Made by a program: the position numbers and the translations under genes. Source: an uncultured Bacteroidales bacterium (GTDB lineage: Bacteria > Bacteroidota > Bacteroidia > Bacteroidales > F082). From it: a stretch of DNA of 64,000 nt. Below the pieces are notes generated by a model. It had not been told where the DNA came from and searched no databases. It saw only the letters and a program-made list of their open reading frames with translations. Location of the stretch: assembly GCA_946408345.1 (NCBI GenBank), contig CAMJRR010000012.1:1993-65992 (forward strand), written 5' to 3'. Positions 2,185-17,533 of this stretch are shown in pieces; the stretch's first letter is position 1; each line of letters starts with the position of its first letter.

Positions 2185-2213
2185 GTGGGACGTACTGGAC
2201 TCGAACCAGTGAC
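2185..2213. repeat. attL core: displaced copy of tRNA-Val 3' end
   Basis: GTGGGACGTACTGGACTCGAACCAGTGAC is identical to 60835-60863. No 5' tRNA half follows it here. Confidence 0.9.
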
Positions 2214-2291
2214 TACCGAGACCAATACCACGACTTCCATCCGTCTGAAATTCAGCCTGTTGTTATTCCTATTTTCTTCGTTTTTCCATGG

Positions 2292-2318
2292 TTTTGCGCC
2301 GTTTTTGCGCCGATTTTT
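2292..2318 (+). promoter_or_regulatory. tandem TTTTGCGCCG(A)TTTT motifs, candidate arm-type recombinase binding sites (left arm)
   Basis: TTTTGCGCCGTTTTTGCGCCGATTTTT lies ~80-105 bp inside attL. The same motif is duplicated at 60768-60793. Confidence 0.5.
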
Positions 2319-2378
2319 CATGGGCGCAATGATAGCGCATATATCTGTTAATCAGTTATTTTCGGTGGATTGTTTGTG

Positions 2379-2717
2379 TCAATTTTGTGGCGGTTTTGAT
2401 GCTACGAAAACAGGGTCTATTCCTCGCATGAAGTCCAGCAAAGCAAGCAGCCTCTTTTCGTACTCGTTGAACAATGACTTGCTGAAGCCTTTCTCATTCG
2501 CTATGGGGTTGGTTTGGTCATCATACAGCCAACACTCATTCGGCCTAATGCAATCAGGCCTGTCAGATGCTATTGATAAAAGCAGTTTGTCTTTGTCAAA
2601 CCGCTTTGGCAGATAGCCCTCGAAAATCTTTTCATATTGACGATTATAGACTTCTATCGTTTTCTCATTAAAAGCCACTTTATAAGGAAAACATTGCCTG
2701 AAAAAGTGATTGTCCAT
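2379..2717 (-). CDS. hypothetical protein (lysogeny-module cargo)
   Basis: 112-aa ORF, last gene of the reverse-strand repressor operon. It looks AT-rich and has no recognisable motif. Confidence 0.6.
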   Translation of the reverse strand: MDNHFFRQCFPYKVAFNEKTIEVYNRQYEKIFEGYLPKRFDKDKLLLSIASDRPDCIRPNECWLYDDQTNPIANEKGFSKSLFNEYEKRLLALLDFMRGIDPVFVASKPPQN

Positions 2718-2728
2718 ATTTTGTGTTT

Positions 2729-3157
2729 TTATAAATCCCTTACCATTTTGGAATGTTCAATGTCTTTCTCGTGTATCATCAGTTTTAGCCCTTTGTATGG
2801 GCAGACCCATTGATTATCTTTTATAAGTTTCCGTTTTACTAACTCTCTATAGGCAAGTAGAAACTTTCCCAAGGTTTTTTTGGGCGAATCAGAAGCGACA
2901 AGGAATAGATAATTTTTGGTTGACAAGCCATTTTCTATCCTACGACCATATATGGCTATGTATGAATCAGGAAAGGATATTTCGTGGTCGGTACGAATCA
3001 CGAAGGGCATGTAAGTGTATTCTCCCTTGTCCTCGATGTAATTAGGAAGACTGTCTATTCCATCAAGCAATTGTTGTGAATCCAGGTCTATCTTTGCGTT
3101 TTGCAAACCTTGATTGATTTCTTTTTCCAAATCTTTTTTGCTCATGGTGTTATTCAT
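2729..3157 (-). CDS. hypothetical protein (lysogeny-module cargo)
   Basis: 142-aa ORF whose start overlaps the repressor gene stop by 4 nt (3154-3157). No recognisable motif. Confidence 0.65.
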   Translation of the reverse strand: MNNTMSKKDLEKEINQGLQNAKIDLDSQQLLDGIDSLPNYIEDKGEYTYMPFVIRTDHEISFPDSYIAIYGRRIENGLSTKNYLFLVASDSPKKTLGKFLLAYRELVKRKLIKDNQWVCPYKGLKLMIHEKDIEHSKMVRDL

Positions 3158-3507
3158 TTCAGTTTATTCTGTTCGATGATTTTCAAGAGTCTATCAATCT
3201 GCTTGTCTTTTTCCTTCAGTTGTTCCCTCAAAGCCTTAATAGCCTCGTTAGAGTTTTGTGTGTTTCCACCGCTAATGTGAGAGGCATAGTTGCCATTTCC
3301 AAAAGATGAAGTTTCTTCTTCCCAACCATAAAACTCATTTGGGGAAATACCAATGAACTCACAAAGAAGGGGAACTTTAGAAAAACTCATAGTTCCATCT
3401 TCATAAGCTATTTTCCAACTGTTTTCTGCATAACCGGCAATTTTTGCAGCATCTTTTACCTTCTTTTTGTTTCTTTGAATAATTGATTTTAATTCATTGT
3501 AATTCAT
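3154..3507 (-). CDS. CI-like HTH transcriptional repressor
   Basis: 117 aa. N-terminal HTH-like segment is KVKDAAKIAGYAENSWKIAYEDGTMSFSKVPLLCEFIGISPNEFY. The C-terminal part looks coiled-coil. It is divergent from the early operon. Confidence 0.7.
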   Translation of the reverse strand: MNYNELKSIIQRNKKKVKDAAKIAGYAENSWKIAYEDGTMSFSKVPLLCEFIGISPNEFYGWEEETSSFGNGNYASHISGGNTQNSNEAIKALREQLKEKDKQIDRLLKIIEQNKLK

Positions 3508-3532
3508 ATAGATAAAAATTTTGTTGAAAAAA

Positions 3533-3570
3533 TTTCCAAAGATTTATCTTTGTTTCCAAAGATTTATCTT
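3533..3570. repeat. two 18-bp direct repeats in the immunity switch region (candidate operators)
   Basis: TTTCCAAAGATTTATCTT occurs at 3533-3550 and 3553-3570. The second copy abuts the rightward -7 box. Confidence 0.6.
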
Positions 3571-3577
3571 ACTTTTG
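3570..3577 (+). promoter_or_regulatory. Bacteroidota -7 promoter box (TAnnTTTG) for the early rightward operon
   Basis: TACTTTTG, 45 nt upstream of ATG 3622. Confidence 0.55.
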
Positions 3578-3613
3578 CAGACGAAAATACAGACGAAAAT
3601 ACAAATAAAAATC
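3578..3613 (+). repeat. 12-nt A-rich tandem repeat in the early-operon leader
   Basis: CAGACGAAAATA occurs twice (3578-3601), followed by a degenerate CAAATAAAAATC. Confidence 0.7.
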
Positions 3614-3621
3614 TTAAAGCG

Positions 3622-3843
3622 ATGAAAAAAGTGAAACTAAGAGCATTTTGGGAGTCACAGCAAGTGGCAACCAGGAACAAAATTCTTCTTGAAGTGGCTG
3701 ACAAATGCCACAACTCAATTCAAACCGTAAGGGCGTGGATGCTTGAGTATCGCAAGCCGCAAGGCCTTTATCGTGATGCCTTGGCAGAGTACCTCAAAGA
3801 AAACTTCCAAGTCGAAATCATCGAGGAAGGAGGTGCGGAATGA
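3622..3843 (+). CDS. Cro-like small HTH protein
   Basis: 73 aa, first gene of the rightward operon. HTH-like segment is NKILLEVADKCHNSIQTVRAWMLEY. The ORF is open from 3550, but ATG 3622 lies downstream of the promoter box. Confidence 0.6.
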   Translation: MKKVKLRAFWESQQVATRNKILLEVADKCHNSIQTVRAWMLEYRKPQGLYRDALAEYLKENFQVEIIEEGGAE

Positions 3844-4043
3844 ACAAGAATATTGAGGCTTTTGTCCAAAGCATAACAGAGTGCGGCGGCGACCAGTCGT
3901 ATGCCGTTGAGTTAGCGGTCGCCCTCGCTCAATCCGAGTTGGAGTCGAGGATAATACACGCCAAAACGGAATTTTCCAATGAATTGTCGAAGATGAGCTG
4001 CTGGGAGTTGCGGCAAATCATCGAGGAAGGAGGCAACCAATGA
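3840..4043 (+). CDS. hypothetical early protein
   Basis: 67 aa. GGAGG-N6-ATGA junction with the upstream gene. Confidence 0.6.
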   Translation: MNKNIEAFVQSITECGGDQSYAVELAVALAQSELESRIIHAKTEFSNELSKMSCWELRQIIEEGGNQ

Positions 4044-4156
4044 GCCGTAACTACAACCTCGATTGGGATGACTATGCCGCCATCGACGCATGGGGCGAAG
4101 GCGCTGCCGACACCTATGCCGTCGATTTCAACGGATGCTGGTACAAAAACGAATGA
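4040..4156 (+). CDS. hypothetical small early protein (38 aa)
   Basis: Hand-translated MSRNYNLDWDDYAAIDAWGEGAADTYAVDFNGCWYKNE. GGAGG-N6-ATGA junction. Confidence 0.45.
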   Translation: MSRNYNLDWDDYAAIDAWGEGAADTYAVDFNGCWYKNE

Positions 4157-4229
4157 GGTTCGGCAAAACCATAAACCGCCACACCTCTACCGAGAGTCTT
4201 CGCATTGCCCCTCGGCATGTGTGGCAAAA

Positions 4230-4305
4230 GGGTTGGTAATGGAGCAGACAGGAACTTTCTATACCATATTAACCTAGTCTGGCGGTTCGATTCCGCTCCA
4301 ACCCA
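4230..4305 (+). ncRNA. tRNA-like element, non-canonical (no assignable anticodon arm)
   Basis: 76 nt. Perfect 7-bp acceptor (GGGTTGG/CCAACCC), U8, A14 and a canonical T arm (GGCGG-TTCGATT-CCGCT). The interior instead forms ATGG/CCAT around a 21-nt loop. Confidence 0.5.
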
Positions 4306-4331
4306 CACTCTAACTCAAAATCAACAACACT

Positions 4332-4715
4332 ATGGACGAATACAAATTCAAACCCTTGGAAGACTGGCTCAAGGAAGTCAGACAAGACGACTGCGACAGC
4401 TTCGTTGCCATTGCGGTCAACAAAGACCACAAGCTCTGCGCCTCGGTGCAAACCGATTATAATGATATGGTGCTCATGCTGATGACAGCCTGCCACAAGA
4501 ACCCACCATTCGCAACAGCCATCATGACCGTGGCAACATTGCTATCCAAAGAGGCCAAACAAGGTTGCCACAACTGCCAGCACGCGGGCCTCTTAGGCGG
4601 CAACGAGAAAAACCCCGTGGCCGTGGCCCACTGCATCATCCACAAAAAGAACCACCGCCTGCCTCACGGCTGCGACGACTGGAAAAAACGCGAAGAGAAA
4701 GGAGACCAGCAATGA
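4332..4715 (+). CDS. hypothetical early protein, Cys/His-rich C-terminus
   Basis: 127-aa ORF. CHNCQH...HCIIHKKNHRLPHGC. Confidence 0.65.
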   Translation: MDEYKFKPLEDWLKEVRQDDCDSFVAIAVNKDHKLCASVQTDYNDMVLMLMTACHKNPPFATAIMTVATLLSKEAKQGCHNCQHAGLLGGNEKNPVAVAHCIIHKKNHRLPHGCDDWKKREEKGDQQ

Positions 4716-5026
4716 GCTATATCGGAGAATCAAGGCCTACCTACAAAAGCCCTTGTGAATTGGTCTTGTGCTTGAATGAATCAGATTGCAAGTTGCTCTT
4801 GAAAGCGGCAGAAAAGATTGCCATCCGTGCCCAAAAGAATTACGAGAAGTGGAGAGATATTCAAGATGGTGGCGAAATGACAGCACGGCAAGAAACCATT
4901 CTCATAAAAGCAGATGAAGCAAGGGAAAATGCCGACGCCTTGGTTGGCAATATCAAAGCTTTCCTCGCACAGGAAGCGCGATGGGAAGAACATGCAAAGC
5001 AGATTATGAAAGGAGGCCAGCAATGA
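4712..5026 (+). CDS. hypothetical early protein
   Basis: 104 aa from ATG 4712. GGAGA-N6-ATGA junction. Confidence 0.6.
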   Translation: MSYIGESRPTYKSPCELVLCLNESDCKLLLKAAEKIAIRAQKNYEKWRDIQDGGEMTARQETILIKADEARENADALVGNIKAFLAQEARWEEHAKQIMKGGQQ

Positions 5027-5589
5027 AAGGCGTGTGCAAAATATGCGGCTGCACGATGAAAAACCCGTGCTTCAGCCACAAATACGGCTTCTGCTGGTGG
5101 CCGACATTCGAGGAGGATATCTGCTCCCATTGCGCAAATCCAGAAATCAAGGATGATCCAAACGTCATCCATTGCGTCCACGGCATGGAGTTTCCCGTCC
5201 TGAGCGTCCACCAGCCCTACGCGCAGATGCTCGTGGAAGGGAAGAAGCCCTACGAATTCCGTGGATGGAAGCTGCCTGAGCGTTATGTCGGCCAACGGAT
5301 ATTCATCCACGCCACCAAGACGCTGGAAACCACCTACGACGAAGTGTTTGCCTGCGGCAACAAAGACGCTTTCGATGAATGCTGGAAAAAGGCCTTCAAC
5401 TATAATCTCCACACGATGATCATCGGCTCGGTCGTATTCGGCAAAACCATCGAGCCTCTGATAGACGTAGTGAATTTTGACGGCCAACCGGTGAAGGTCT
5501 ATAGATGGCCTGTGCAGGATCCTGTCAAACTTGACTACCCGCTGGAGTCCATCCCCGGCAAACAAGGCATTTGGAAAATAAGTTTTTGA
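5023..5589 (+). CDS. ASCH (PUA-like) domain protein with N-terminal Cys-rich region
   Basis: 188 aa. PVLSVHQPYAQMLVEGKKPYEFRGW resembles the ASCH signature. GGAGG-N6-ATGA junction. Confidence 0.6.
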   Translation: MKGVCKICGCTMKNPCFSHKYGFCWWPTFEEDICSHCANPEIKDDPNVIHCVHGMEFPVLSVHQPYAQMLVEGKKPYEFRGWKLPERYVGQRIFIHATKTLETTYDEVFACGNKDAFDECWKKAFNYNLHTMIIGSVVFGKTIEPLIDVVNFDGQPVKVYRWPVQDPVKLDYPLESIPGKQGIWKISF

Positions 5590-5780
5590 TTTCAAAATGC
5601 GTGACCAATGGACGAACACAGAGAATTGATTGGCTGTGATAGGTTGCACTTCATTTGGGTGTCTTGTGATACCACCTGCTATATGCTTAAATGCGATAAA
5701 ACAGGTTGCACCAATTACGCCATCTGCCCTTACAACACCAAAATGAATATGCCAAGTAACAATGAAAGGAGAAAAAAACA

Positions 5781-6038
5781 ATGAAATTCAACCTCGCCAA
5801 AGCTGCCACCTACGCCCGTACGACCATCGACGGAGTGACATACCGCTATGGATGGTACGAAAGCGGTCGCGCCTTCATCGCCAAAGAAGACGAACTGCTG
5901 ACCTACAAAGAAGCCTACAAGACCTTCGTGCCAAAAAACTGCTTCAATATGTATGACTATTTCTTTGATGGCCTCAGCAAATACAAAAAGACCATCGACG
6001 GCATCGTCCGCTACCTCATCGACAAATACAACAGCTAA
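5781..6038 (+). CDS. hypothetical early protein
   Basis: 85-aa ORF, co-directional with its neighbours. Confidence 0.6.
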   Translation: MKFNLAKAATYARTTIDGVTYRYGWYESGRAFIAKEDELLTYKEAYKTFVPKNCFNMYDYFFDGLSKYKKTIDGIVRYLIDKYNS

Positions 6039-6051
6039 AATTGAAACAACC

Positions 6052-6198
6052 ATGTCAAGAAAGACTTATTACATTCCTGAGCAATGCCGAGGCTGTCATA
6101 ACATCGAATCGGAATTAGTTGGCATTAACCCTAAAAGGGTAGTCTACTTTTGCTCAAATCATAATTGCCCCAACTATATTCCCCGCGAAGAAAGATGA
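6052..6198 (+). CDS. small zinc-ribbon-like protein
   Basis: 48 aa from ATG 6052. CRGC...CSNHNC forms two Cys pairs. Confidence 0.5.
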   Translation: MSRKTYYIPEQCRGCHNIESELVGINPKRVVYFCSNHNCPNYIPREER

Positions 6199-6353
6199 CC
6201 AAGCAGCAGAAATACAGCATCGTGATGGACATGCAAAACCGCTACAGCGTGGTATTGCGCGGTACCAGCATTGCAGTCTACCGAAGCGAGAACCACGGCC
6301 AAGCCGGTCTTGAAGACTGTCAGGACTGGCTGGCCAAACAGCCGGAGGAATGA
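6195..6353 (+). CDS. hypothetical small early protein
   Basis: 52 aa from ATG 6195, which overlaps the upstream stop. Confidence 0.5.
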   Translation: MTKQQKYSIVMDMQNRYSVVLRGTSIAVYRSENHGQAGLEDCQDWLAKQPEE

Positions 6354-6368
6354 CCCATAGAAAACACC

Positions 6369-6578
6369 TTGTTCGACATAGAGGAATACACCGACCCCGA
6401 AGTGCGCCGCATCATGCAGGGCAACACCTGCCGCCATTGCGCCAACCGCAAAACGATCAGGCAAGGCCAAAGCCGCCTGTCGGTTTGCCTGGCCCACAAA
6501 AGCGGCCGAACCAAGAGCGGCTATCTCCGCGTCCGCGTCGACCAACCTGCTTGCATCTTATACACAATCGAAAAATAA
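6369..6578 (+). CDS. hypothetical small protein (start uncertain)
   Basis: The ORF begins at TTG 6369 and the first in-frame ATG is 6414. CRHC...C motif. Confidence 0.45.
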   Translation: MFDIEEYTDPEVRRIMQGNTCRHCANRKTIRQGQSRLSVCLAHKSGRTKSGYLRVRVDQPACILYTIEK

Positions 6579-6587
6579 AACAAAGCA

Positions 6588-7058
6588 ATGAACCCGCTGA
6601 ACTACATCATCAAAATCAACCTGTACGGGAAGGGCGATACAGAACACCAAGTGGATAAGGTAGTTTACTATCGCTATGACTTCCCTTACATGATGATATA
6701 TCGCTGGCGGTGGTACTTTGAATACATTGCCGCCTTGGTCAAAGTGCATTATCCTCATCGTAAAGTTGAATTGATAATTGATCAAAATAGCGAAGGCTAT
6801 CTTGCTGGTCAGGACTACATAGAAAAAAAGACGAAGAGTCTTTTGACTTCTCTTCGCTCACAACTGACCAGGCTGGAAAACGGTGTCGTACAAGACGACC
6901 TTTTCGGCACGGTGTCCGAGAAAAACGAGGCGAAAAAAGAGAGGATCCGCAAAGAAATCGCAGACCTTGAAAGCGGTGTCTTTACGAGGTGGGTCCCTGA
7001 CACTTACAAAAACATAATCAAAGAAGTATTAAACAACTCAAAATCAATAAGACAATGA
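6588..7058 (+). CDS. hypothetical early protein
   Basis: 156-aa ORF. Confidence 0.65.
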   Translation: MNPLNYIIKINLYGKGDTEHQVDKVVYYRYDFPYMMIYRWRWYFEYIAALVKVHYPHRKVELIIDQNSEGYLAGQDYIEKKTKSLLTSLRSQLTRLENGVVQDDLFGTVSEKNEAKKERIRKEIADLESGVFTRWVPDTYKNIIKEVLNNSKSIRQ

Positions 7059-7438
7059 ACATTTACAATGAAATCAAGAAAAACGTTCCAGATTTGGAAC
7101 AAGCAAAACTGAACTACTCCTACATCATGAGCCGTGGAGAGGCACAGGAAAAAGTAGAGAATCTAGAAAAGCAACTCGGCGGGTTGGCCGTCTATTACGA
7201 ATTGACAGGCAAACGCCTGACAATATACTATTCTCCAGCATTGGGTAAGGAATGGGAAGGAAATATCGTCGGCAAGAAGATCCGTCTCGCCCGCACCAGC
7301 ATGGTTGGTGAGGTAACGAGCGAAAAGCCTTATTTCATCAGTGGCTCAAGATGTGTCCGTTGTCAGTTCGGCAAAGACAACGACGCTTATGACATTACAA
7401 ACCTTGAATCAGTAAAAACAGAAGGAGGTAAGAAATGA
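7055..7438 (+). CDS. hypothetical early protein
   Basis: 127-aa ORF. ATGA overlap with the upstream gene. Confidence 0.65.
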   Translation: MNIYNEIKKNVPDLEQAKLNYSYIMSRGEAQEKVENLEKQLGGLAVYYELTGKRLTIYYSPALGKEWEGNIVGKKIRLARTSMVGEVTSEKPYFISGSRCVRCQFGKDNDAYDITNLESVKTEGGKK

Positions 7439-7695
7439 TGTATTACGAAGCACAAGAACTGGCATGTGCCATCCTCGGTCTCAACTATGACGACCTTGCG
7501 GATGAAGGCAGAGAAAACGAAATCGATGAAGCTTTATACGTGAAGTTTGGAATTGATATGGAGCAATTCGTCAAAATCGTTGAAGCATTGCTGCCGTTCA
7601 CACCTGTCGTGCAGGCTGGATTAACCGGCAATAAATACCACGCTTTCGTCAACGAAAAGGAAAGCCTGATGATTGTAAAACAAAGCGCAGAATAG
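7435..7695 (+). CDS. hypothetical early protein
   Basis: 86 aa. GGAGG-N6-ATGA junction. Confidence 0.6.
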   Translation: MMYYEAQELACAILGLNYDDLADEGRENEIDEALYVKFGIDMEQFVKIVEALLPFTPVVQAGLTGNKYHAFVNEKESLMIVKQSAE

Positions 7696-7706
7696 GAGAA
7701 CGAGTA

Positions 7707-7967
7707 ATGGAAATCACACCGAGATTTAGATTTGTAGAAGGTAGCTTTGACACCCTGACAAACAAGATGCTTGTCATAGGAAGCGACAATCACGGTACCG
7801 TGGAATTGTGCTTCAAAGAAGAAGATTGTGGATGGAACATTCCTTTTGCAGAAATCAAATTGTATGACAGCGGATTATACAAGGATTTCGCTGCAACATA
7901 CAATGATGCAAAGAAATTGGGCGAGGAAATATCCCGAAGATGGAATGAATGTCCGAATAAACAATAA
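7707..7967 (+). CDS. hypothetical early protein
   Basis: 86-aa ORF. Confidence 0.6.
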   Translation: MEITPRFRFVEGSFDTLTNKMLVIGSDNHGTVELCFKEEDCGWNIPFAEIKLYDSGLYKDFAATYNDAKKLGEEISRRWNECPNKQ

Positions 7968-7979
7968 AGGAGGCGAGAA

Positions 7980-8495
7980 ATGATGTACTACAAGATTAGC
8001 AACAAAAAGAGCAAAACCTACAAAAAGTGCCACGAACTTCGCACGGAAGAACTGAAAATGGAAAAAGAAAACGCCAAGCGAGTCCGTGAGATTGTTGGCG
8101 ACGATTGGGACCACTTCTGCGGATGGAGTGGTCAACAGAACATCGACCGGGTTACTTGGTATAACGGTTTTGCCTTCAAAGACCCGTCCAAACTGTCAAA
8201 CGCATGGAAAAAGCACAAAGAGTATCCAGATATTTATGTTCCCAATACAAGGACGAAGGCTGGGAAAAAGATAAAAGAGGAATTGAATAATCTACAACGG
8301 TCGTGTTTCTATAGGGTACTGGAAATATTCGGATTGCAAGTGATTGGCAGGTTCAGCTATCCATATATGGAGATATGCGATAGTGGAGAGATAGTATTGG
8401 CCATGGATGACCAATTCAATTTTGACAATTTCCCCGAGGTCATAGAAATCACCAAGAGAGAAGCCGAAAGGCTGCTGAAAGGAGGGGAGGAATGA
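7980..8495 (+). CDS. hypothetical early protein
   Basis: 171 aa. GGAGG sits 6 nt upstream of the ATG. Confidence 0.65.
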   Translation: MMYYKISNKKSKTYKKCHELRTEELKMEKENAKRVREIVGDDWDHFCGWSGQQNIDRVTWYNGFAFKDPSKLSNAWKKHKEYPDIYVPNTRTKAGKKIKEELNNLQRSCFYRVLEIFGLQVIGRFSYPYMEICDSGEIVLAMDDQFNFDNFPEVIEITKREAERLLKGGEE

Positions 8496-10087
8496 TCCGC
8501 CTTCTCTACATCGACCTCTTTTGTGGTGCTGGTGGCACCACCACGGGCGTTGAAGCTGCCCGCATTGGCGGCAAGAAATGCGCAAAGGTGATTGCCTGCG
8601 TCAACCACGACGCCAACGCCATCCGTAGCCATGCCGCCAACCACCCCGACGCGCTCCACTTCACCGAGGACATCCGCACACTCGACATTGCGCCATTAGC
8701 CGCTCACCTGGCCAAGTGCCGCAAGCTCTATCCAGGTGCAAAGGTGGTGCTGTGGGCTTCGCTCGAATGCACCAACTTCAGCAAGGCCAAAGGTGGCTTG
8801 CCGCGTGATGCCGACAGCCGCACCCTCGCCGAACACCTCTTCCGTTACATCGAAGCCCTCAGCCCCGATTACATCCAAATCGAAAACGTGGAGGAGTTCA
8901 TGAGCTGGGGCGACATGGACGAACACGGCCACCCCATCAGCCGCGACCGTGGCCGCAGCTTCATGGCGTGGGTCAACCATGTGCGCGACTACGGCTATTA
9001 CTTCGACTACCGCATCCTCAATGCCGCCGACTATGGCGCCTACACCAGCCGCAAACGCTTCTTTGCCATCTTCGGCAAGAAAGGTCTGCCCGTGGTGTTC
9101 CCCGTGGCCACCTACGCAAAAAACGGCAACGAGGGACTGGAAATCTTCGGCGACACGATGTATCACAAATGGAAGCCCGTGCTCGAAGTTCTCGACCTTG
9201 ACGACGAAGGCACGAGCATCTTCACCCGCAAGAAACCCTTGTGCGAAAAGACCCTCAAACGCATCTATGCCGGACTGATCAAGTTTGTGGCTCACGGCAA
9301 AGACAATTTCCTCGTGAAGTACAACTCGATGAACCAAAGGGGCGAATATGTCGCGCCTGGCACTGACGAGCCAAGCCCAACCGTGGCCGTCCAGAACCGC
9401 CTTGGATTCGCCAAGGTGCAGTTCCTCAGCAAACACTTCAGCGGCGACCCCGCCAGCAAGAACACCAGCGTAGACCAGCCTGCCGGAACACTCACTTGCA
9501 AGTGCAACCAGTCGTTCATCACGGCCTATTACAGCAACGGCGACAACTGCACCCCGATTGACAGGCCGGCGCCGACCATCCCCGCCCAGGATCGTGTTGC
9601 CTTGGTCACCACGCAGTTCTACCAAAACGAGTATGGCGCAGGCGGCCAACTCTCCAGCCTTGACCAACCCAATCCCACCGTGATGCCAACACCCAAGCAG
9701 AAATTGGTGTCGGTCAAGCAGTACCTCATGAACCCCCAGTTCGACAGTGCCGGTGGCAGCATCGACCAGCCTTGTTTCACCCTCATTGCCCGCATGGATA
9801 AAATGCCGCCCTATCTCGTCACCACCAAGGAGGGTGTCGGCATTGCCATCTTTGAGGACGACTCGCCGATGACCGTCAAGATAAAGGAGTTCATGGCCTT
9901 GTATAACATCGTCGACATCCGTATGCGGATGCTGAAGGTGGACGAACTGAAGCGCATCATGGGTTTCCCGACCGACTATGTGTTAATCGGCACCCAGAGC
10001 GAACAAAAGAAATTCATCGGCAACGCGGTCGAGGTCGGCATGGCCAGGCAGCTTTGCGAAACATTAGCTAATTGTGTGAGAGTATGA
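8492..10087 (+). CDS. DNA (cytosine-5)-methyltransferase
   Basis: 531 aa. Motifs DLFCGAGG (I), LECTNFS (catalytic Cys, IV), IENV (VI) and SRKRFF (VIII). No adjacent endonuclease gene. Confidence 0.85.
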   Translation: MIRLLYIDLFCGAGGTTTGVEAARIGGKKCAKVIACVNHDANAIRSHAANHPDALHFTEDIRTLDIAPLAAHLAKCRKLYPGAKVVLWASLECTNFSKAKGGLPRDADSRTLAEHLFRYIEALSPDYIQIENVEEFMSWGDMDEHGHPISRDRGRSFMAWVNHVRDYGYYFDYRILNAADYGAYTSRKRFFAIFGKKGLPVVFPVATYAKNGNEGLEIFGDTMYHKWKPVLEVLDLDDEGTSIFTRKKPLCEKTLKRIYAGLIKFVAHGKDNFLVKYNSMNQRGEYVAPGTDEPSPTVAVQNRLGFAKVQFLSKHFSGDPASKNTSVDQPAGTLTCKCNQSFITAYYSNGDNCTPIDRPAPTIPAQDRVALVTTQFYQNEYGAGGQLSSLDQPNPTVMPTPKQKLVSVKQYLMNPQFDSAGGSIDQPCFTLIARMDKMPPYLVTTKEGVGIAIFEDDSPMTVKIKEFMALYNIVDIRMRMLKVDELKRIMGFPTDYVLIGTQSEQKKFIGNAVEVGMARQLCETLANCVRV

Positions 10088-10455
10088 ACGATTTTGGTAG
10101 CATATACAGAACGAGAAAGGCATGGAATGACACATGCCTGGCGGCTGGAATCCCTTCTATCAGCACCGACACATCCGCAAGGATCATGGCCGTGCTTTAT
10201 GTTCATGGCAATAACGAGGCGTTTACTTTCAACCAAAAGTTTGTCGCCGATATGGAATACATTCAGAAGCGCTTCCATATTGAAGGAGCAGGAACACCAT
10301 CTTGTGATTTCGTTGACTTATTGATAGAGTATGTGTCTGAACTCGAACAATACGCCCTACAGCATAAAAATGAAAGCAAGGAGGCCGTGTTTTCGGACGG
10401 CAAACCCCAATGGGCGATTGACTTATTCAAGGAAATGTATAACATCAAAATTTAA
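10084..10455 (+). CDS. hypothetical protein, paralog of 34839-35186
   Basis: 123 aa from ATG 10084 (ATGA overlap). It aligns by eye with the 115-aa product of 34839-35186: W.E/D.CL..G.P....T..SARIMA.L...GNNEA...FKEMYNI. Confidence 0.65.
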   Translation: MNDFGSIYRTRKAWNDTCLAAGIPSISTDTSARIMAVLYVHGNNEAFTFNQKFVADMEYIQKRFHIEGAGTPSCDFVDLLIEYVSELEQYALQHKNESKEAVFSDGKPQWAIDLFKEMYNIKI

Positions 10456-10459
10456 TATT

Positions 10460-11344
10460 ATGATATACGGTTATTTAAGAGTTTCATCAGACGATCAAGA
10501 TGTAAACTCGCAAAAACAAGGTGTGGAAAAGTTTGCCGAACTGCGTGGGTGGAAAATTGAAGAATATATTTCCGATGAAGGTATAAGTGGTGGTAAAGAC
10601 CCAGATAAGCGTAAACTCGGCCCGTTGCTAAAGAAACTTAAAAAAGATGATATTGTTATCGCATCTGAAATAAGTCGCCTAGGCCGTGACCTTTACATGG
10701 TGATGGACATCTTGCACTTCTGCATGAAAATGGAATGCAAGATTTACACGGTCAAAGACAACTTTGCGCTTGATGATAATATACAATCGAAGGTACTCGC
10801 TTTTGCATTTGGCCTCGCCGCTGAAATCGAGCGTCAGATGATCCGCCAACGAACCCGAGAAGGTCTGCGTCTTCGTATGAAGATGGGTGTGTTGCTTGGC
10901 AGACCAATCGGAGCAACCAACAGCGAGGAAGCACAGAAGTACGGCGAATGGAAAGACCGTGTGAAGCAAATGGTGGAATGGCAGATGCAGCCACGACAGA
11001 TTGCTGACATTATCGGTTGCGATCGTAACACCGTCAACCGCCTTGTCGCTCGTTGGGGCTTCGGAAAGGAGTGGAAGTACAAAACCGAGTGGGCAAAGAA
11101 CGATAACAAACAGCGTGGCATCACCAGACAGCCAACCTACAAAGACGAACCCTACAAGATTGTGCAACTGAATCGTGAACGTGTCCGCAAGATGATAGAA
11201 GCCGACATGACCATTCCACAGATTGCAGAAGAATTTCCCATGTACACTTACGAGCAGGTATATGACACTATTCTTTGTGACTATGAATTCAACCCCCTGT
11301 ATCGTCATCACGGTCAATTAAAAGTCAAAAAAGTAAAGAAATAA
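10460..11344 (+). CDS. serine recombinase (resolvase/invertase family) with extended C-terminus
   Basis: 294 aa. MIYGYLRVSSDDQ carries the catalytic Ser. Also EISRLGRD and the HTH RQIADIIGCDRNTVNRLV. Confidence 0.85.
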   Translation: MIYGYLRVSSDDQDVNSQKQGVEKFAELRGWKIEEYISDEGISGGKDPDKRKLGPLLKKLKKDDIVIASEISRLGRDLYMVMDILHFCMKMECKIYTVKDNFALDDNIQSKVLAFAFGLAAEIERQMIRQRTREGLRLRMKMGVLLGRPIGATNSEEAQKYGEWKDRVKQMVEWQMQPRQIADIIGCDRNTVNRLVARWGFGKEWKYKTEWAKNDNKQRGITRQPTYKDEPYKIVQLNRERVRKMIEADMTIPQIAEEFPMYTYEQVYDTILCDYEFNPLYRHHGQLKVKKVKK

Positions 11345-11520
11345 TGACAGGCGAGAAAGACAAGATACACGCATTCTTTACGACACTAACCGCCGTGCAT
11401 GTGGTGTGTGGCAAGATGACGAGAAACAAGGCCGAGAAAAAGGCTTACAAGCATCTTGTAGACATGTACGGCGAAGAATACCTTGAAGAATTGTTCAAAG
11501 ACGAAATTGAAACCCAATGA
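11344..11520 (+). CDS. hypothetical small protein (58 aa)
   Basis: Hand-translated MTGEKDKIHAFF...DEIETQ. TAATG and ATGA overlaps with both neighbours. Confidence 0.45.
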   Translation: MTGEKDKIHAFFTTLTAVHVVCGKMTRNKAEKKAYKHLVDMYGEEYLEELFKDEIETQ

Positions 11521-11993
11521 TCACCGACGGCAAACCCATATTAGACGCTTGTTGTGGCAGCCGAATGTTCTGGTTCGACAAAGACAATCCCTTCGTGGAG
11601 TTCATGGACATCCGCGATGAGGAAGTCTATTTGTCAGACGGGCAACTGGTGATAGTTCACCCGAACACCATCGGCGACTTCACCAATATGCCATATCCTG
11701 ACAACAGCTTCAAGATGGTGGTGTTCGACCCACCGCATTTGGTATGGGCTGGTAAAGCCGCCAACCTTTACAAGCGGTTCGGCAAGCTCGATAAGGACTG
11801 GAAGACGGAGTTGGCCATGGGCTTCAAGGAATGCTTCCGTGTTCTGGAACCTTACGGCGTTCTCATCTTCAAGTGGTGTGAAACCCAGCTGAAGTTGAAA
11901 ACCGTCCTCGCTTTGACAAACGAAAAGCCGCTATTTGGCCACAAGCGCGGCAAAACCTTTTGGGTGGCCTTCATGAAATTTCCAAAACAATAA
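11517..11993 (+). CDS. SAM-dependent methyltransferase, DPPH motif (putative DNA N6-A/N4-C methyltransferase)
   Basis: 158 aa. ILDACCGS (SAM-binding-like) and VVFDPPH (motif IV-like). Confidence 0.6.
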   Translation: MITDGKPILDACCGSRMFWFDKDNPFVEFMDIRDEEVYLSDGQLVIVHPNTIGDFTNMPYPDNSFKMVVFDPPHLVWAGKAANLYKRFGKLDKDWKTELAMGFKECFRVLEPYGVLIFKWCETQLKLKTVLALTNEKPLFGHKRGKTFWVAFMKFPKQ

Positions 11994-11997
11994 CGCC

Positions 11998-12162
11998 ATG
12001 GGAAAGCTAACACCACCACCAGTTGTACGCTCCAACGAAACCATTATCCCTAAATGGATGATGGATAAGATACGCTTGTCGAAACCAAAGAAAAGCGTGT
12101 GCTCCCAATGCGGTGCCCCGCTACATGGTCACACATGCGAATACTGCGGAACTGAATACTAA
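11998..12162 (+). CDS. small zinc-ribbon protein (54 aa)
   Basis: Hand-translated. Contains CSQCGAPLHGHTCEYCG. Confidence 0.45.
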   Translation: MGKLTPPPVVRSNETIIPKWMMDKIRLSKPKKSVCSQCGAPLHGHTCEYCGTEY

Positions 12163-12180
12163 CGAAAGGAGAATAACCCA

Positions 12181-12621
12181 ATGCCCACAAAATTCCCAAT
12201 CGACTACGAGCCAGGCAAAGTCCAAGCCTTCCTGATCAGCAAAGAGACAGGACAGATGATTGAAGCCACACCATTGACTGAAATCGCCCCTAAACCGTGG
12301 CCAATAGATGACATCGAAATCGAGACCGAGCCGGAACCGCCTAAGTCGCTCACCCTCTCCGGCACCTTCACGCTGAAGACAAAGATGAAGGCCAACCAAA
12401 GGCGAAAACTCATCAGAGCCTTAAGCGGCAAACAGAAGCTGCCCCGCAAGCTGAAGAAAGCCCTAAAACATGTGGGCTTCTTCCAACTCCCAATGGAACG
12501 CATAAAGACAGAAAACGGCGTCGCCTTCAAGCAAACAGTAGGATTTGGCCCCAAGGACGGCTATCCATGCACCAAATGGGTGAACCGCGCCTGCCTGAAA
12601 CTCAAAGCCGAAACATTATAA
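12181..12621 (+). CDS. hypothetical protein, basic C-terminal half
   Basis: 146-aa ORF. Confidence 0.65.
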   Translation: MPTKFPIDYEPGKVQAFLISKETGQMIEATPLTEIAPKPWPIDDIEIETEPEPPKSLTLSGTFTLKTKMKANQRRKLIRALSGKQKLPRKLKKALKHVGFFQLPMERIKTENGVAFKQTVGFGPKDGYPCTKWVNRACLKLKAETL

Positions 12622-12654
12622 TCATTGAAAAACAACTCAAAACTCCATACTGAA

Positions 12655-13524
12655 ATGAAAATCACCTATCCCGAATGCCAAATCGAAATCAGCACGGATG
12701 AAATCATCGACCTGATGGACCACTTCGTCGAAAGAACGAAATCCCGTAAGCACGAAAACCCGAAAGAACCCGACAATCACGAAGAAGATCCTGCCCCCAC
12801 CTTCGAGCCTGGCGGCATCATCAGCACCGGCGACGACATGCCACTGCCAAACCCCTATCCCAACCTGACAGACCATGAAGCCATCATCCCACGAGGCACA
12901 GGTTTCCAAGACCTCATAATGCAAGGCCTCAAGGATGCCGAAGAACAAGGCAAGCTGCCTGAAGTTATACCCACCGACGAAAGCACGTCATCCAGTAAGG
13001 ACGATAGCATGAAAGTGGAAGGAACCCCCGCCGAAAGCACGAGACCCCGAAAAGCTCACAGAAGAATGAACCCCGACAACGAATCCAAGAAAGTTGATGT
13101 CCTCTTCGATGATTACGGTTGGAAAACCTTCAACAGCGTGAGCGAAGCCGCCAGGGCCATCGACGCAAGGGTGAACCACCTCAACCACGCCTTGCTGAAC
13201 GATAAGACCTGCAACGGACATCATGTGCGCTATCACGCGCCCGATCCTGCGCCAGGCATGGAACTTCCACCGGCCAAACGCCCGGCCTACTCCGCCAGAA
13301 AAGTCGACGTGCAGGCCGCAGACGACTCCTGGACCACATTCGACACCGTGACCGAAGCCGCCTCACACATCGGAGTCAAGGCCGCAGCAATGTCCTTGGC
13401 TTGCCGCAACGAAAAGAAAGTGAAAGGCTATGCCGTGCGCTACCACTCCGATATGGACAACATCATGAAAGAGATTAAAGAATCTGACAAGAAACCTTAC
13501 CAAACCACTCCTCCAGTCCGTTAA
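12655..13524 (+). CDS. DNA-binding protein with two NUMOD1/IENR-like HTH repeats
   Basis: 289 aa from ATG 12655. An internal duplication reads KVDV..DD.W.TF.SVSEAA..I....N.K..G..VRYH. The N-terminal half is acidic. Confidence 0.55.
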   Translation: MKITYPECQIEISTDEIIDLMDHFVERTKSRKHENPKEPDNHEEDPAPTFEPGGIISTGDDMPLPNPYPNLTDHEAIIPRGTGFQDLIMQGLKDAEEQGKLPEVIPTDESTSSSKDDSMKVEGTPAESTRPRKAHRRMNPDNESKKVDVLFDDYGWKTFNSVSEAARAIDARVNHLNHALLNDKTCNGHHVRYHAPDPAPGMELPPAKRPAYSARKVDVQAADDSWTTFDTVTEAASHIGVKAAAMSLACRNEKKVKGYAVRYHSDMDNIMKEIKESDKKPYQTTPPVR

Positions 13525-13527
13525 GCC

Positions 13528-13659
13528 ATGTCTCCCGAAGAATCCGTCCTGTTCTACGAGCAACAGCAAGCCTACCGACAACGCCGCGAAGACTTCAACC
13601 AAGAAGTGCTTCGCTGGTTTGAGGAAAAATACCAACCAAAAGTATCTACAATGCAATGA
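13528..13659 (+). CDS. hypothetical small protein (43 aa)
   Basis: Hand-translated MSPEESVLFYEQQQAYRQRRED... ATGA overlap with the primase start. Confidence 0.4.
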   Translation: MSPEESVLFYEQQQAYRQRREDFNQEVLRWFEEKYQPKVSTMQ

Positions 13660-16604
13660 TCAACATCGACAAACTATATGAAGCCACCAACGGCGGCGCC
13701 GACCTCTTCAAGTTCTACTTCCCCGATTTCGATCCGGGAAAGAGTTCCAAACTGGTGAAGGTGCGCGACGACGATGACCACCCTTCAGCCAGCATCTTCC
13801 GAAGTGGCGACAAATGGCTTATCAAGGATTGGGGCGGTGCCAACAACAAAGCCTATTCGATGATAGACTTTGTGATGGAGCGCGAACACCTCGAATTCAA
13901 GGAGGCTGTCGCCTTCATCGATCGCGTGTGCCAGACCAACCTGTCGGCACAGGAAGGGGAGAAGCGTACCTTTTCCGGGGCGAAGATGACCAAGGTGGCG
14001 CCGATGAACGAGAGGGTGATCATCCGTAGGCAATCCGGAAAGTTCACCAAAAAGGAACTTTCCATCCTAGGTGCCACCGACCGCAACGGAGAGCCTTGCA
14101 TCACACAAGAGACCTGCGACCAGTTCAACCTTATCCCGCTTGACGGCTATATCAACCCGACCAAGGACGGCAATGTCTCGTGGAAGGTGGAAGCCACGGA
14201 CGACTACCCCATCATGTTCTACGACTATGGCGATTGGGGAAAGATCTATCAGCCCTTCGGCGAAGTCCGATTCATGTACTATGGAAAGAAGCCGGAGCAT
14301 TGGCTGTTTGGCTGCAACCTCTTCCAGGAAGCATGGCAGAAAGCATTGAAGGGCAGCTATCCCCATGTGCCTGAGTTCAGCGGCGGCAAGAAAGCCAAGG
14401 CTGGTGAAGACGGCTATGTGGACGAACAGGAAGAGGACGAGCGATGGGAAGCCTTGACGATATGTTCAGGCCCGTCCGATGCACTCAATGTGTATCGTGC
14501 CGGGCATGTCGTCTGCTGGCCAAACAGCGAGAGCGAACCACTGACATCGGACATCATCAAGAAACTGTTACGCCTGACCCGCAATCTCTATGTGCTCTAT
14601 GATGCCGATGCTACAGGTTTGCGTAATGCCTACGACCTGGCACTACGCAACCTCGATATCCAAATCATTAGTCTGCCCGCCGACCTTGGCGAATGGCGCA
14701 CCAACAAGCGCGACAAGGACGGCAAGCCCAAGATGTGCAAGGACATCAAAGACTTTTGTATGTTCTACAAGAAGGGCCACATTGACCCATACAAGGAATT
14801 CAAGTACCGTCTTGTTAAGTTGGCCAAGCCCTTGCGGTTCTGGATCGAGTCGACCGACAAGAACGGCAAGAAGTCTTACGAAATCAGCAACGCACACCTC
14901 TACAAATTCCTTTCGGCCAATGGTTTTCACAAGATGGTGACCAACTCTGCTGGCGGTTGGGTGTTCGTGTACGTGAAAGGCAAGGTGGTGGAGGTCATCA
15001 AGGAAGAAGACATGGTGGCCCGCGTCAAGGAGTTCCTGATCGCATTCATTATGGAGAACACGGAATACTACAGCGTCATCCTCGAAAACGCCATCCATCG
15101 CTCGAAGCAAATCAATCTTGAGTCGCTGAAGAACCTTGACAATATTGAGGTCGACCTTGACGCATTCTCAGCGAAGGCGGAGTATTTCTTTTTCCGCAAC
15201 TGCATCGTGCGCATCACCGCCGATGGCATTGAGACCATCAAGCAAGACGACTGCCCCTACTATGTGCTGAAGCACAAGGTAATCCAGCACGACCTGAAAC
15301 TATGCAAGGAATTGTATGCAGCCGACTACAGCGAGACCGGACGTTGGGCTGTCGATATGCGCGATTCGTTTACCCCCGCTTCCCCCGATTATCAGGTATG
15401 GGAGGCGAATATTGACAAATTGTCCAAAAACAATGAAATGTATAGGTGTGAGGTGAGGTCGGACTTCGACTTCGTGCGCTACATCTACAACACGAGCAAC
15501 AAGTATTGGCGCGAAGAGGCTGAAGCCAAGGCCAACGGCGGCGACCTCGAACCCACGGAGCGCAAATCCATCGAGACGAATTTCCTCAACAAAGTGACCA
15601 CACTCGGCTACATGCTCACCAAGTACAAGAGCAAAGGCGATGCCCGCGCCGTGTACTGTCTGGAAACCAACGTCATGGAAGATGACGAAGGGCAGCATAA
15701 CGGAGGCACAGGCAAGTCGCTCTACATGCGCTGCACCAACAAGGTACGCAAGGAGGTCTATATCGACGGCCAGGACATGAAGAACAAAAGCTGGGACTTC
15801 CTGTTCCAGCGTGTGGATTTCGACTCCGACCTGGTGAACATCGACGACCTCGCCAGCAGCATCGACCTGAACGCTTTCCTGAACAACATCACCGGCGACA
15901 TGATTGTCAACCAGAAGAACAAGGCCGAATTCATCATCCCCTACAGTCATTCGCCCAAAATGTGCTTCACTTCCAACCACGCCATCAAGCGTTTCGGCGG
16001 TTCACTGAAGAGGCGCATCCAGTTCGTCTCTTTCAGCGACTACTACCATTCGGCCAACGACGAGGCTGGCATTGCCAAACGCTCGCCACTCACCGAGTTC
16101 GGGCGCAACCTGATTGACGACTACGACGAGAAGGACATGAACACCTTCTACAACTTCATGCTCCAGAACGTGCACACCTACATGCGTTTCGGCCTCATCG
16201 AGCCTGACATGCCCGACATCGCCATGCGCCAGATGAAAGCTAACATCGGCCTTGACTTCATCAACTGGGCAGACCAATGGTTTGAACAAGACCTGACAGG
16301 TGAAAGCCGGTTCAACAAGAACATCAATAAGGACGAGGCCTATTCAGCTTGGAAAGCCACCCTCAACTCGAAGGAACTGGGATGGGTGACTCCCAACAAG
16401 TTCAAGAAGAAACTCCAAGGCTGGTGCAAGGTGCGCGGCCATGTCTATATCCCGGAGGAGATGCGCGCCAACATGACCAAGACCGAACGCGACCGCAACG
16501 AAATCCGCTTCAAGGATGACACGGGAAGGTATGTGTACGGCTTCTATATCGAACAAAACCCGCAAACCAAGGAGGAGACGCCGGTATGGGAAGACCCCTT
16601 CTGA
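13656..16604 (+). CDS. DNA primase / P-loop helicase fusion (TOPRIM + D5/VirE-like NTPase)
   Basis: 982 aa. TOPRIM-like LYVLYDADATG, Walker A NGGTGKS and Walker B-like LVNIDDL. Confidence 0.8.
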   Translation: MINIDKLYEATNGGADLFKFYFPDFDPGKSSKLVKVRDDDDHPSASIFRSGDKWLIKDWGGANNKAYSMIDFVMEREHLEFKEAVAFIDRVCQTNLSAQEGEKRTFSGAKMTKVAPMNERVIIRRQSGKFTKKELSILGATDRNGEPCITQETCDQFNLIPLDGYINPTKDGNVSWKVEATDDYPIMFYDYGDWGKIYQPFGEVRFMYYGKKPEHWLFGCNLFQEAWQKALKGSYPHVPEFSGGKKAKAGEDGYVDEQEEDERWEALTICSGPSDALNVYRAGHVVCWPNSESEPLTSDIIKKLLRLTRNLYVLYDADATGLRNAYDLALRNLDIQIISLPADLGEWRTNKRDKDGKPKMCKDIKDFCMFYKKGHIDPYKEFKYRLVKLAKPLRFWIESTDKNGKKSYEISNAHLYKFLSANGFHKMVTNSAGGWVFVYVKGKVVEVIKEEDMVARVKEFLIAFIMENTEYYSVILENAIHRSKQINLESLKNLDNIEVDLDAFSAKAEYFFFRNCIVRITADGIETIKQDDCPYYVLKHKVIQHDLKLCKELYAADYSETGRWAVDMRDSFTPASPDYQVWEANIDKLSKNNEMYRCEVRSDFDFVRYIYNTSNKYWREEAEAKANGGDLEPTERKSIETNFLNKVTTLGYMLTKYKSKGDARAVYCLETNVMEDDEGQHNGGTGKSLYMRCTNKVRKEVYIDGQDMKNKSWDFLFQRVDFDSDLVNIDDLASSIDLNAFLNNITGDMIVNQKNKAEFIIPYSHSPKMCFTSNHAIKRFGGSLKRRIQFVSFSDYYHSANDEAGIAKRSPLTEFGRNLIDDYDEKDMNTFYNFMLQNVHTYMRFGLIEPDMPDIAMRQMKANIGLDFINWADQWFEQDLTGESRFNKNINKDEAYSAWKATLNSKELGWVTPNKFKKKLQGWCKVRGHVYIPEEMRANMTKTERDRNEIRFKDDTGRYVYGFYIEQNPQTKEETPVWEDPF

Positions 16605-16668
16605 TCCGGCTTCCTCTTTTTTTTCGCTCTTTGAAATTTTTCACCGTCACAACCGCTCTTTCTATCTC

Positions 16669-16908
16669 TTGACATTTTGACATTTTGACATAGAAGAAAA
16701 TAAATCAATGGAAATCAATAAAATAAGTTATGTCAAAAATTTGTCAAGTCAAAAATCGCCGAAAATTTTTGACATAGAAAGCGCGAAAATTGACACGCTT
16801 GAAAATCAAGTAGTTACAAAATCCATGTCAAAATGCCGTTTTGCACGAAAAATGATTTTGACACGGCTAACACACTGAAAACCAATTGTGTCAAAATTAA
16901 TGTCAAAA
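16669..16908. repeat. array of at least 10 TTTTGACA / TGTCAAAA octamers in both orientations (iterons / origin or activator sites)
   Basis: Forward copies at 16669-16690 (three in tandem), 16767, 16789 and 16857. Reverse copies at 16731, 16748, 16826, 16889 and 16901. TCAAAATTAATGT is also duplicated at 16891-16922. Confidence 0.75.
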
Positions 16909-16990
16909 AATCAAAATTAATGTGGTATTGGAAGGTTGAACGGTGGAACATCAAGAAAACTGAATTATCAACAACAAAACGCAATACAAA

Positions 16991-17527: not shown

Positions 17528-17533
17528 AAAACC

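Follow-up and report, generated by a model that had tools for sequence, protein, structure and literature searches.

Shine-Dalgarno (SD)-assisted termination-reinitiation at ATGA or TGATG overlaps, known from E. coli operons and phages (Huber et al. 2019, PMC6728339), is the closest described counterpart of a gene junction that recurs along a prophage of an uncultured Bacteroidales bacterium of the F082 lineage. The prophage occupies 58.7 kb (2185..60863, plus strand) of the window analyzed here, a 64,000-nt stretch of contig CAMJRR010000012.1 from a metagenome-assembled genome (MAG; GCA_946408345.1, 3.07 Mb, 86% complete), and apart from the integrase and a repressor-like gene at its ends nearly all of its genes lie on the plus strand. 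As in the described system, stop and start codons overlap by 4 nt, the upstream gene contains the SD near its 3' end at canonical spacing, small genes form chains, and the junction is also found in host operons for multi-subunit complexes. The prophage helices, at 10–12 bp, are nonetheless far longer than typical termination-reinitiation SDs, and Huber et al. excluded SD reinitiation in just this host lineage (about 10% of overlaps), whereas related prophages analyzed here reach 40–86%.

Two further systems resemble the junction in part. The rpsU (bS21) mRNA of Flavobacteriales has an extended SD and is translated by ribosomes lacking bS21 (McNutt et al. 2023, PMC9976891; Jha et al. 2021, PMC7797042). 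The prophage likewise combines long complementarity to the 16S rRNA tail with a Bacteroidia organism otherwise without SDs, a combination implying that at least one ribosome state has a functional anti-SD; its helices fall within the rpsU range of 9–13 consecutive base pairs, and several junctions reach −19.9 to −20.2 kcal/mol. However, rpsU is a single, autoregulated leading gene with its SD in the 5' untranslated region, whereas the prophage has many sites, located inside upstream coding sequence at overlaps. T4-type PeSL cassettes (PMC2839356, PMC4122927) also present a short repeated expression signal that bounds small, variable early genes in hyperplastic regions, with copies that bracket insertions and replacements, as those of the prophage motif may do. 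PeSL elements, though, are transcriptional and intergenic, about 50–70 nt long, and consist of an early promoter with a terminator-like stem-loop, whereas the prophage motif is translational, 15–19 nt long, and made up of an SD and an overlapping stop/start within coding sequence; a recombination role is only suggested for it. In the immI operon of phages P1 and P7 (c4 antisense RNA, icd, ant), an antisense RNA controls the first cistron, and translational coupling extends this control to the next one. An Rfam c4-2 RNA (RF02944, 26040–26112; 46.1 bits against a gathering score of 41) is present in the window between the terminase gene and a 459-aa gene, and gating at an operon head combined with strict coupling would follow the same logic. 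Unlike in P1/P7, the gene adjoining the confirmed c4-2 copy is not SD-chained.

The initial annotation of this DNA had proposed a reused translational-coupling junction, read through as coding sequence, and our analysis supports that proposal. GGAGG lies exactly 6 nt before the ATG at 3840, 4040, 5023, 7435, 7980, 8492, 41680, 41955, 42260 and 42568, and GGAGA at 4712. In ten of these eleven sites the ATG overlaps the upstream stop as ATGA; at 7980 the upstream gene stops earlier, and the motif falls in a 12-nt spacer. The tails EEGGAE, EEGGNQ, KGGQQ, EGGKK, KGGEE, EGGER and EGGEQ are present as described, as is an exact 19-nt repeat at 3815–3833 and 4015–4033. The window contains 12 matches to GGAGG-N6-ATG, compared with 2.06 ± 1.19 in shuffles (largest 5), and a repeat finder independently recovered the junctions of both clusters as 19-nt families. 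The GGAGG core stood up, but the functional unit proved longer: in full the motif reads A-G-R-A-A-GGAGG-T-G-N4-ATGA, and as many as 12 nt of it are complementary to the 16S tail. At ten of the eleven sites, and also at 23725, 29371, 5781 and 42768, an ATGA overlap joins open frames that score positively as coding sequence. The sites at 23725 and 29371 are AGGAGG-N7-ATGA junctions, and weaker AGGAGA or AGGACA forms occur at 5781, 7707, 12181, 20929, 42768 and 42958. The motif also stands outside coding sequence, in the spacers at 7980, 12181 and 42958. The junctions, all on the plus strand, are as follows.

3824..3843 (+), AGGAGG-N6-ATGA junction, upstream tail IIEEGGAE*, duplex energy with the 16S tail −20.2 kcal/mol
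4024..4043 (+), AGGAGG-N6-ATGA junction, tail IIEEGGNQ*
4696..4715 (+), AAAGGAGA-N6-ATGA junction (the GGAGA variant), −13.5 kcal/mol
5007..5026 (+), AAAGGAGG-N6-ATGA junction upstream of an ASCH-like 188-aa gene, −15.6 kcal/mol
5765..5784 (+), weaker junction of AAAGGAGA, A-rich spacer and ATGA, −12.7 kcal/mol
7419..7438 (+), GAAGGAGG-N6-ATGA junction, tail EGGKK*
7964..7983 (+), AAAGGAGG-N6-ATGA in the 12-nt intergenic spacer; the upstream gene ends with TAA at 7965–7967
8476..8495 (+), AAAGGAGG-N6-ATGA junction upstream of the C5 cytosine methyltransferase gene, −16.1 kcal/mol
23709..23728 (+), AGGAGG-N7-ATGA junction upstream of the terminase large subunit gene, a late gene
29355..29374 (+), AAAGGAGG-N7-ATGA junction upstream of the 459-aa gene, −17.7 kcal/mol
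41664..41683 (+), first junction of the second cluster, GAAAGGAGGTG-N4-ATGA, −19.9 kcal/mol
41939..41958 (+), second junction of this cluster, GGAAGGAGGTG-N4-ATGA, −20.2 kcal/mol
42244..42263 (+), third junction, GGAAGGAGGTG-N4-ATGA, −20.1 kcal/mol
42552..42571 (+), fourth junction, GAAAGGAGGTG-N4-ATGA(TG), −20.1 kcal/mol

A contrast with late genes, which the initial annotation had drawn from the starts at 18272, 19616 and 38330, held only in part. These three starts do lack the motif, but the comparison is confounded because all are non-overlapping (gaps of 141, 33 and 68 nt), and the motif is not early-specific: the terminase gene (23725), the 459-aa gene (29371) and the cluster before the tape-measure gene carry it. 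The motif tracks stop/start overlaps, not early timing. Gene duplication was rejected as the source of the shared junction, as the flanking proteins are unrelated, with no mutual blastp match at E ≤ 0.01.

In three genomes of the genus the 16S 3' end reads GGAA(C/U)ACCUCCUUUCU, with the tail forms GGAACACCUCCUUUCU-3' and ACACCUCCUUUCU-3', and CCUCC is present. The junction motif is complementary to this tail over 10–12 nt, up to the last rRNA nucleotides, with duplex energies down to −20.2 kcal/mol (a perfect site would have −21.9). A logo of 45 N6 sites, pooled from this phage and its relatives, gives for positions −16 to −5 the consensus A, G (38/45), R, A, A, GGAGG, T (37/45), G (33/45). 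At position −14 there are 22 A and 23 G and no pyrimidine, and U can pair with either purine. Position −15, which falls on the third base of a codon, is G in 38 of 45 sites against a background of 27% (p = 2e-15); the second glycine codon is GGT in 37 of 45, although GGT makes up 14.5% of phage glycine codons (p = 5e-24). Thus, the silent codon positions match the rRNA complement, which argues for selection on the RNA and not on Gly-Gly protein tails. Spacing is N6 in 45 of 63 strong sites and N7 in 9. The rigidity of the N6 spacing is due in part to the coding frame, which constrains the codons: N6 reads GGA-GGU (Gly-Gly), N7 reads GAG-GAG, and N5 would require the codon AGG. The surroundings of overlaps with and without an SD also differ in predicted structure, with a mean minimum free energy of −10.1 kcal/mol (n = 10) in the former versus −3.2 kcal/mol in the latter (n = 9; A-rich, unstructured), which suggests that the two types are alternative restart solutions. 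We discarded SD-stimulated frameshifting into the downstream frame, as a slippery site is lacking and the spacing is unlike that of the SD-stimulated shift sites known from prfB and dnaX.

Comparison with the host shows how unusual the junction is. Counting as a strong SD any AGGAGG, GGAGG or AGGAG located 3–11 nt before the start, we obtained the following frequencies.

Free-standing starts: host 10/1617 (0.6%), prophage 2/32
Short-gap starts: host 4.1%, prophage 3/14
ATGA overlaps: host 17/208 (8.2%), prophage 10/19 (52.6%)
1-nt overlaps: host 7/44 (15.9%), prophage 2/5

Ordinary host genes therefore do not share the SD frequency of the prophage, and the view that the junction is anomalous for a Bacteroidota host is borne out. 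The prophage and host ATGA overlaps differ strongly (Fisher p = 4.8e-6), as do overlaps (12/24) and free-standing starts (2/32) within the prophage (p = 3e-4). Host overlaps as a whole (9.5%) also exceed host free-standing starts (p = 1.8e-14), which are SD-depleted and have A-rich leaders although the genus retains the anti-SD in its 16S rRNA; an internal control window within host genes gave about 1.2%. A count made without gene calls returned strong SDs at 11/24 phage and 17/195 host overlaps. Duplex energies of −12 kcal/mol or below were found at 0.4% of host free-standing starts, 6.2% of host overlaps and 52.6% of phage overlaps, and the prophage, which makes up less than 2% of the assembly, supplies 9 of the 23 starts at or below −14 kcal/mol. 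Across 3.0 Mb of host DNA there is no peak in GGAGG-to-ATG spacing, and the N6 share of GGAGGs is 11.2% in the phage versus 2.2% in the host.

The minority of host overlaps with an SD is informative in its own right. The strongest host junctions precede genes for an ABC-2 permease, a GT4 glycosyltransferase, BatA, an RnfD/NqrB-type subunit and an outer-membrane efflux protein, so that host operons for multi-subunit systems share the same junction type; RhuM and KilA-N genes, of kinds typically found on mobile elements, follow other host junctions. The junction upstream of the GT4 glycosyltransferase gene, AAGGAGGCTCAAAATGA (G000 C1:99717-99737), is a chromosomal SD-coupled overlap that is conserved letter for letter in at least 7 genomes of the genus (including G074, G077, G084, G090, G091 and G094). 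Among 150 genomes of the genus, AAGGAGG-N6-ATGA typically occurs 2–6 times per genome, compared with 0–2 times for a reversed control, and a few genomes have 13–26 copies clustered on single contigs. Since host overlaps use the same device, the phage amplifies a minority host mechanism and imports none. Taken together, these patterns clearly point to selection for pairing with the very 3' end of 16S rRNA at stop/start overlaps, weak in the Bacteroidales host and massive in one prophage lineage.

The trait recurs among relatives of the prophage, as the initial annotation had suggested should be examined. These relatives, identified by their primase, come from IMG/VR and from a dozen genomes of the genus; the closest public relative, a contig from the MAG of a Bacteroidales bacterium of roe deer duodenum, has a primase 93% identical. 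Strong SDs are present at 13/22 ATGA overlaps in G166, 9/20 in G188, 8/18 in G174 and 4/10 in G089, and at 6/7 in L053 and 5/9 in L051; lower counts were obtained for G072 (2/13), G149 (1/4), L052 (1/6) and L054 (0/2). A second prophage in the same genome (G000 contig C2, about 45–67 kb), with a primase/helicase 30% identical, has a strong SD at just 1/10 ATGA overlaps, and the trait thus belongs to this phage lineage and not to the phages of this host generally. For cultured phages we counted junctions from their own coding-sequence tables, as annotation-free detection on unrelated records gave many false internal junctions. Among annotated ATGA overlaps, the junction is found at 3/9 in BT-TP2 of B. 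thetaiotaomicron, including AAAGGAGGTGCCAA-ATGA, at 1/5 in Hankyphage p00 of Bacteroides dorei, at 0/2 in B40-8 of Bacteroides fragilis and at 0/5 in Leef_1 of Polaribacter (Flavobacteriia). BT-TP2 and Hankyphage therefore show the trait weakly. In BT-TP2 (L056), whose genome layout is the same as that of the prophage, three consecutive AAAGGAG(G)-N6-ATGA junctions link gp19–gp22 (16540–17260). Cellulophaga phages have been described as without an SD signal (Hockenberry et al., 10.1101/2021.04.21.440840).

Our results are best explained by a model in which the final codons of the upstream gene contain an extended SD (consensus A-G-R-A-A-G-G-A-G-G-U-G), placed 6 nt ahead of an AUG overlapping the upstream UGA, and this SD probably drives termination-reinitiation coupling. 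A ribosome that finishes the upstream cistron at UGA would stay on the mRNA through pairing between the motif and its 16S 3' tail. With UGA in the A site, the SD would lie a few nucleotides behind the P site, and pairing would set the AUG, 1 nt back, in the P site, allowing the ribosome to restart. Each translational unit would open in the style of the host, with an A-rich leader and no SD (for example, at ATG 3622 and 4332), and its downstream cistrons would be chained by SD-ATGA junctions. Because host ribosomes ignore SDs on free mRNA, the chained genes should strictly need translation of the first cistron, and control at the operon head would propagate along the whole array. The model draws on the anatomy of the junction, its complementarity, spacing and enrichment over the host, its silent-position signature and its conservation in the lineage; from these we infer that pairing takes place in vivo and that downstream genes depend on upstream translation. 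Loss of the SD is predicted to lower downstream expression, and the constraint of silent positions to the rRNA complement serves as an evolutionary proxy for such an effect.

Several points weigh against this model. In the ribosomes of Bacteroidia, bS21, bS18 and bS6 keep the anti-SD hidden, and SDs were ignored both in vitro and in reporter assays (PMC7797042, PMC9976891); according to Huber et al., Bacteroidetes rely on the SD for neither initiation nor reinitiation (PMC6728339). The proposed pairing would thus require a hypothetical ribosome state, while the evidence from sequence indicates that some state must leave the 16S tail accessible. The motif is absent from about half of the phage overlaps. 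In addition, the MAG has no assembled 16S gene, and the sequence of the 16S tail was taken from three other genomes of the genus; gene calls came from our own crude, hexamer-based caller, making gene starts approximate; and the sites pooled in the logo are phylogenetically related and not fully independent. A more specific version of the model, which we regard as possible but tentative, is that the anti-SD is freed in the terminating or post-termination ribosome, so that SD pairing would be reserved for reinitiation in this phylum, and that one temperate phage lineage built variable gene arrays on this property, as chains running from a gated first cistron, with the 15–19-nt junction doubling as a recombination joint. 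If true, this would explain why the anti-SD is conserved despite SD-free leaders.

We weighed other explanations for the junction. Special ribosomes with a free anti-SD (immature, lacking bS21 or remodelled during induction) could start de novo at the internal sites and give the phage a private translation channel. The helices of 10–12 bp (to −20 kcal/mol) are in a range reported only for rpsU, which is preferred by bS21-lacking ribosomes (PMC9976891); the motif precedes the non-overlapping starts 7980, 12181 and 42958, two of which follow promoter-like repeats; and the phage carries an initiator-type tRNA. This explanation, however, accords poorly with the concentration of the motif at overlaps (12 of 24 against 2 of 32), and neither a bS21 homologue nor a ribosome-modifying gene was found, the former having been sought in both assembly and prophage. 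Ordinary host operons also share the junction, making a phage-specific ribosome unnecessary, and we consider this explanation improbable. Equally improbable is that the motif is primarily a portable cassette boundary, in which 11–19 nt of shared gene-end micro-homology serve recombination that would exchange one-gene cassettes among phages and translation is secondary, as in the T4 precedent of PeSL (PMC2839356, PMC4122927). The early region is indeed hyper-mosaic: L051, with a primase 97% identical, has just four early segments in common with this prophage, and single genes are 93–95% identical in phages whose primases are 63–65% identical. An exact 19-nt repeat that includes the motif (3815–3833 and 4015–4033) brackets a 200-bp one-gene cassette (3840–4043), the one clear case, and spacers such as TGCCCA and TGAGAA recur. 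Although 46 of the 70 ends of homology blocks are no more than 15 nt away from a gene boundary, ordinary gene-boundary mosaicism gives the same, since selection for intact genes leads to such breakpoints in any phage mosaic. Moreover, descent or gene conversion alone cannot give a 12/12 match to the 16S tail with only pairing-compatible variation (R at −14), and the motif is equally preserved at host operon junctions that do not shuffle. The boundary role is best seen as a side effect or a second role.

Two remaining explanations are contradicted by our data. It is very unlikely that the cassettes and their junctions came from phages of SD-using bacteria in the same habitat (Firmicutes, Proteobacteria) and that the SDs are now functionless relics. 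The only homologues of junction-linked proteins are distant ones in Rhizobium, Vibrio and other proteobacterial phages, but at 26–46% identity any import must be old, which rules out a recent one, and an unselected SD would have decayed; the silent sites are instead strongly constrained. The trait is furthermore retained across Bacteroidales prophages of one genus that differ by up to 40% in primase, while non-overlapping starts of the same phage are of the A-rich host type. Also in favor of import, the exact 17-mer AAGGAGGTGCCCAATGA occurs in 91 IMG/VR stretches (GC content 33–63% in the loci examined), phages of many other hosts among them, although this set was classified noisily without gene models and has no bearing on Bacteroidota. 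Least credible of all is selection for a flexible Lys/Glu-Gly-Gly C-terminus with the SD-like RNA as a by-product. Such x-G-G-x-x ends do occur in 10/75 phage proteins versus 17/2500 host proteins, but the codons are fixed, with GGA-GGT in 37/45 although GGC is the preferred glycine codon (57%) and with a third-position G in the codon before K/E in 38/45; N7 variants encode E-E or K-E and not G-G, and the motif also occurs in non-coding spacers.

The status of bS21 bears on any use of the anti-SD in this genus. Neither the 86%-complete MAG nor the prophage was found to encode bS21 (PF01165), but 54 of the 55 high-quality genomes of this genus have it, and loss of bS21 is therefore unlikely as an explanation. 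The rpsU gene of the genus has no strong SD. In three relatives (L030 (G174), L025 (G089) and L033 (G072)), the host flank beyond the tRNA-Val pair contains a DPP-IV-like peptidase gene and then, within about 1 kb, rpsU, with one extra gene between the two in G174. In this MAG (window 61145–63364) the flank differs after DPP-IV, and rpsU was not found anywhere; this could reflect a gap, a misassembly or a rearrangement. Just downstream of bS18 (rpsR, C1:22283-22435), at G000 C1:22237, a 149-aa gene that is probably rplI carries AAGGAGG, placed 7 nt ahead of the ATG. SDs have been published for a few ribosomal protein genes of Bacteroidales, and AAGGAGG by rpsR agrees with these.

Other features of the prophage concern its ends, its operon heads and its gene content. 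An exact 29-bp direct repeat bounds the prophage, with the right copy inside a tRNA-Val gene. Nearly none of the roughly 27 small junction-flanking proteins matched Pfam or PHROGs; two hit PHROGs of unknown function, and one has an ASCH-like relation by tblastn. The landmarks we could assign are listed below.

3154–3507 (−), helix-turn-helix repressor-like gene (Pfam)
3533..3624 (+), early-operon head by sequence reading: two 20-nt operator-like tandem repeats, Bacteroidales-type −7 box TAcTTTTG, A-rich leader and probable first ATG at 3622
start 8492, C5 cytosine methyltransferase gene
start 10460, serine recombinase
start 13656, 982-aa primase/helicase-like protein
start 18272, S49 prohead protease
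start 23725, terminase large subunit gene (phrog_2)
start 29371, 459-aa gene without a Pfam or PHROG match
42733..42960 (+), 36-nt element in two copies (42733–42768 and 42921–42956): promoter-like TGTATATTTGCAGC, then AAGAAAGGA(C/G)A and an A-rich spacer
start 43259, tape-measure protein
59537–60709 (−), tyrosine integrase (Pfam)

The tandem 20-nt repeats (TTTCCAAAGATTTATCTT..) at 3533–3572 separate the early operon from the divergently oriented repressor-like gene and are likely operator sites. The −7 box at the early-operon head, and with it a putative promoter, was assigned from the Bacteroides promoter consensus TAnnTTTG. A 'TTG start' at 3550 is probably not a true start; the first codon is probably ATG 3622, where initiation would be host-style, without an SD. 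The second cluster (41498–43188) is directly upstream of the tape-measure gene, and its leader (41284–41500) has no Rfam match at the gathering score. The sequence TGTAT(A/G)TTTGC(A/G)GC, which resembles the Bacteroidales −7 promoter box, occurs three times (41282–41295, 42737–42750 and 42925–42938), the first copy heading this leader, and these elements may represent a reused promoter-plus-ribosome-binding-site cassette. The 36-nt copies precede the starts 42768 and 42958; the SD-like sites there are weaker and may serve de novo initiation from a putative promoter. At the 7980 junction, an alternative-frame open reading frame (7828–7983) still ends in KGGEK*, whereas the stop of the annotated upstream gene lies 13 nt earlier; this looks like the remnant of an overlap that existed before a gene replacement. 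M-M-Y-Y begins the products of both the 7435 and the 7980 gene, inside a 34-nt repeat (7413–7446 and 7958–7991) that is 79% identical. The phage tRNA-Met(CAT) at 34149–34222 looks like an initiator-type tRNA: it is similar in sequence to E. coli tRNAfMet, its anticodon stem has three G-C pairs, and there is a U1/U72 mismatch. The same phage would depend heavily on reinitiation.

Finally, our study addresses why Bacteroidia retain a perfect anti-SD that is hidden by their own ribosomes. The published answer is rpsU autoregulation, shown in Flavobacteriales (PMC9976891), and a survey of 720 genomes dismissed SD use at overlapping genes in this phylum. We propose the testable hypothesis that terminating ribosomes use the anti-SD, for which the cultured B. 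thetaiotaomicron phage BT-TP2, with the same junctions, offers a tractable system. The junction also has practical implications: gene callers tuned to expect no ribosome-binding site in Bacteroidota will misplace starts in such phage arrays, and the junction could couple genes in synthetic operons for Bacteroides. In summary, the junction is a real feature under clear selection, of a known kind of mechanism but exceptional in density and strength, in a lineage thought to be without it. Our work suggests that a "hidden" rRNA tail may still hold a ribosome that has just finished with the upstream gene.

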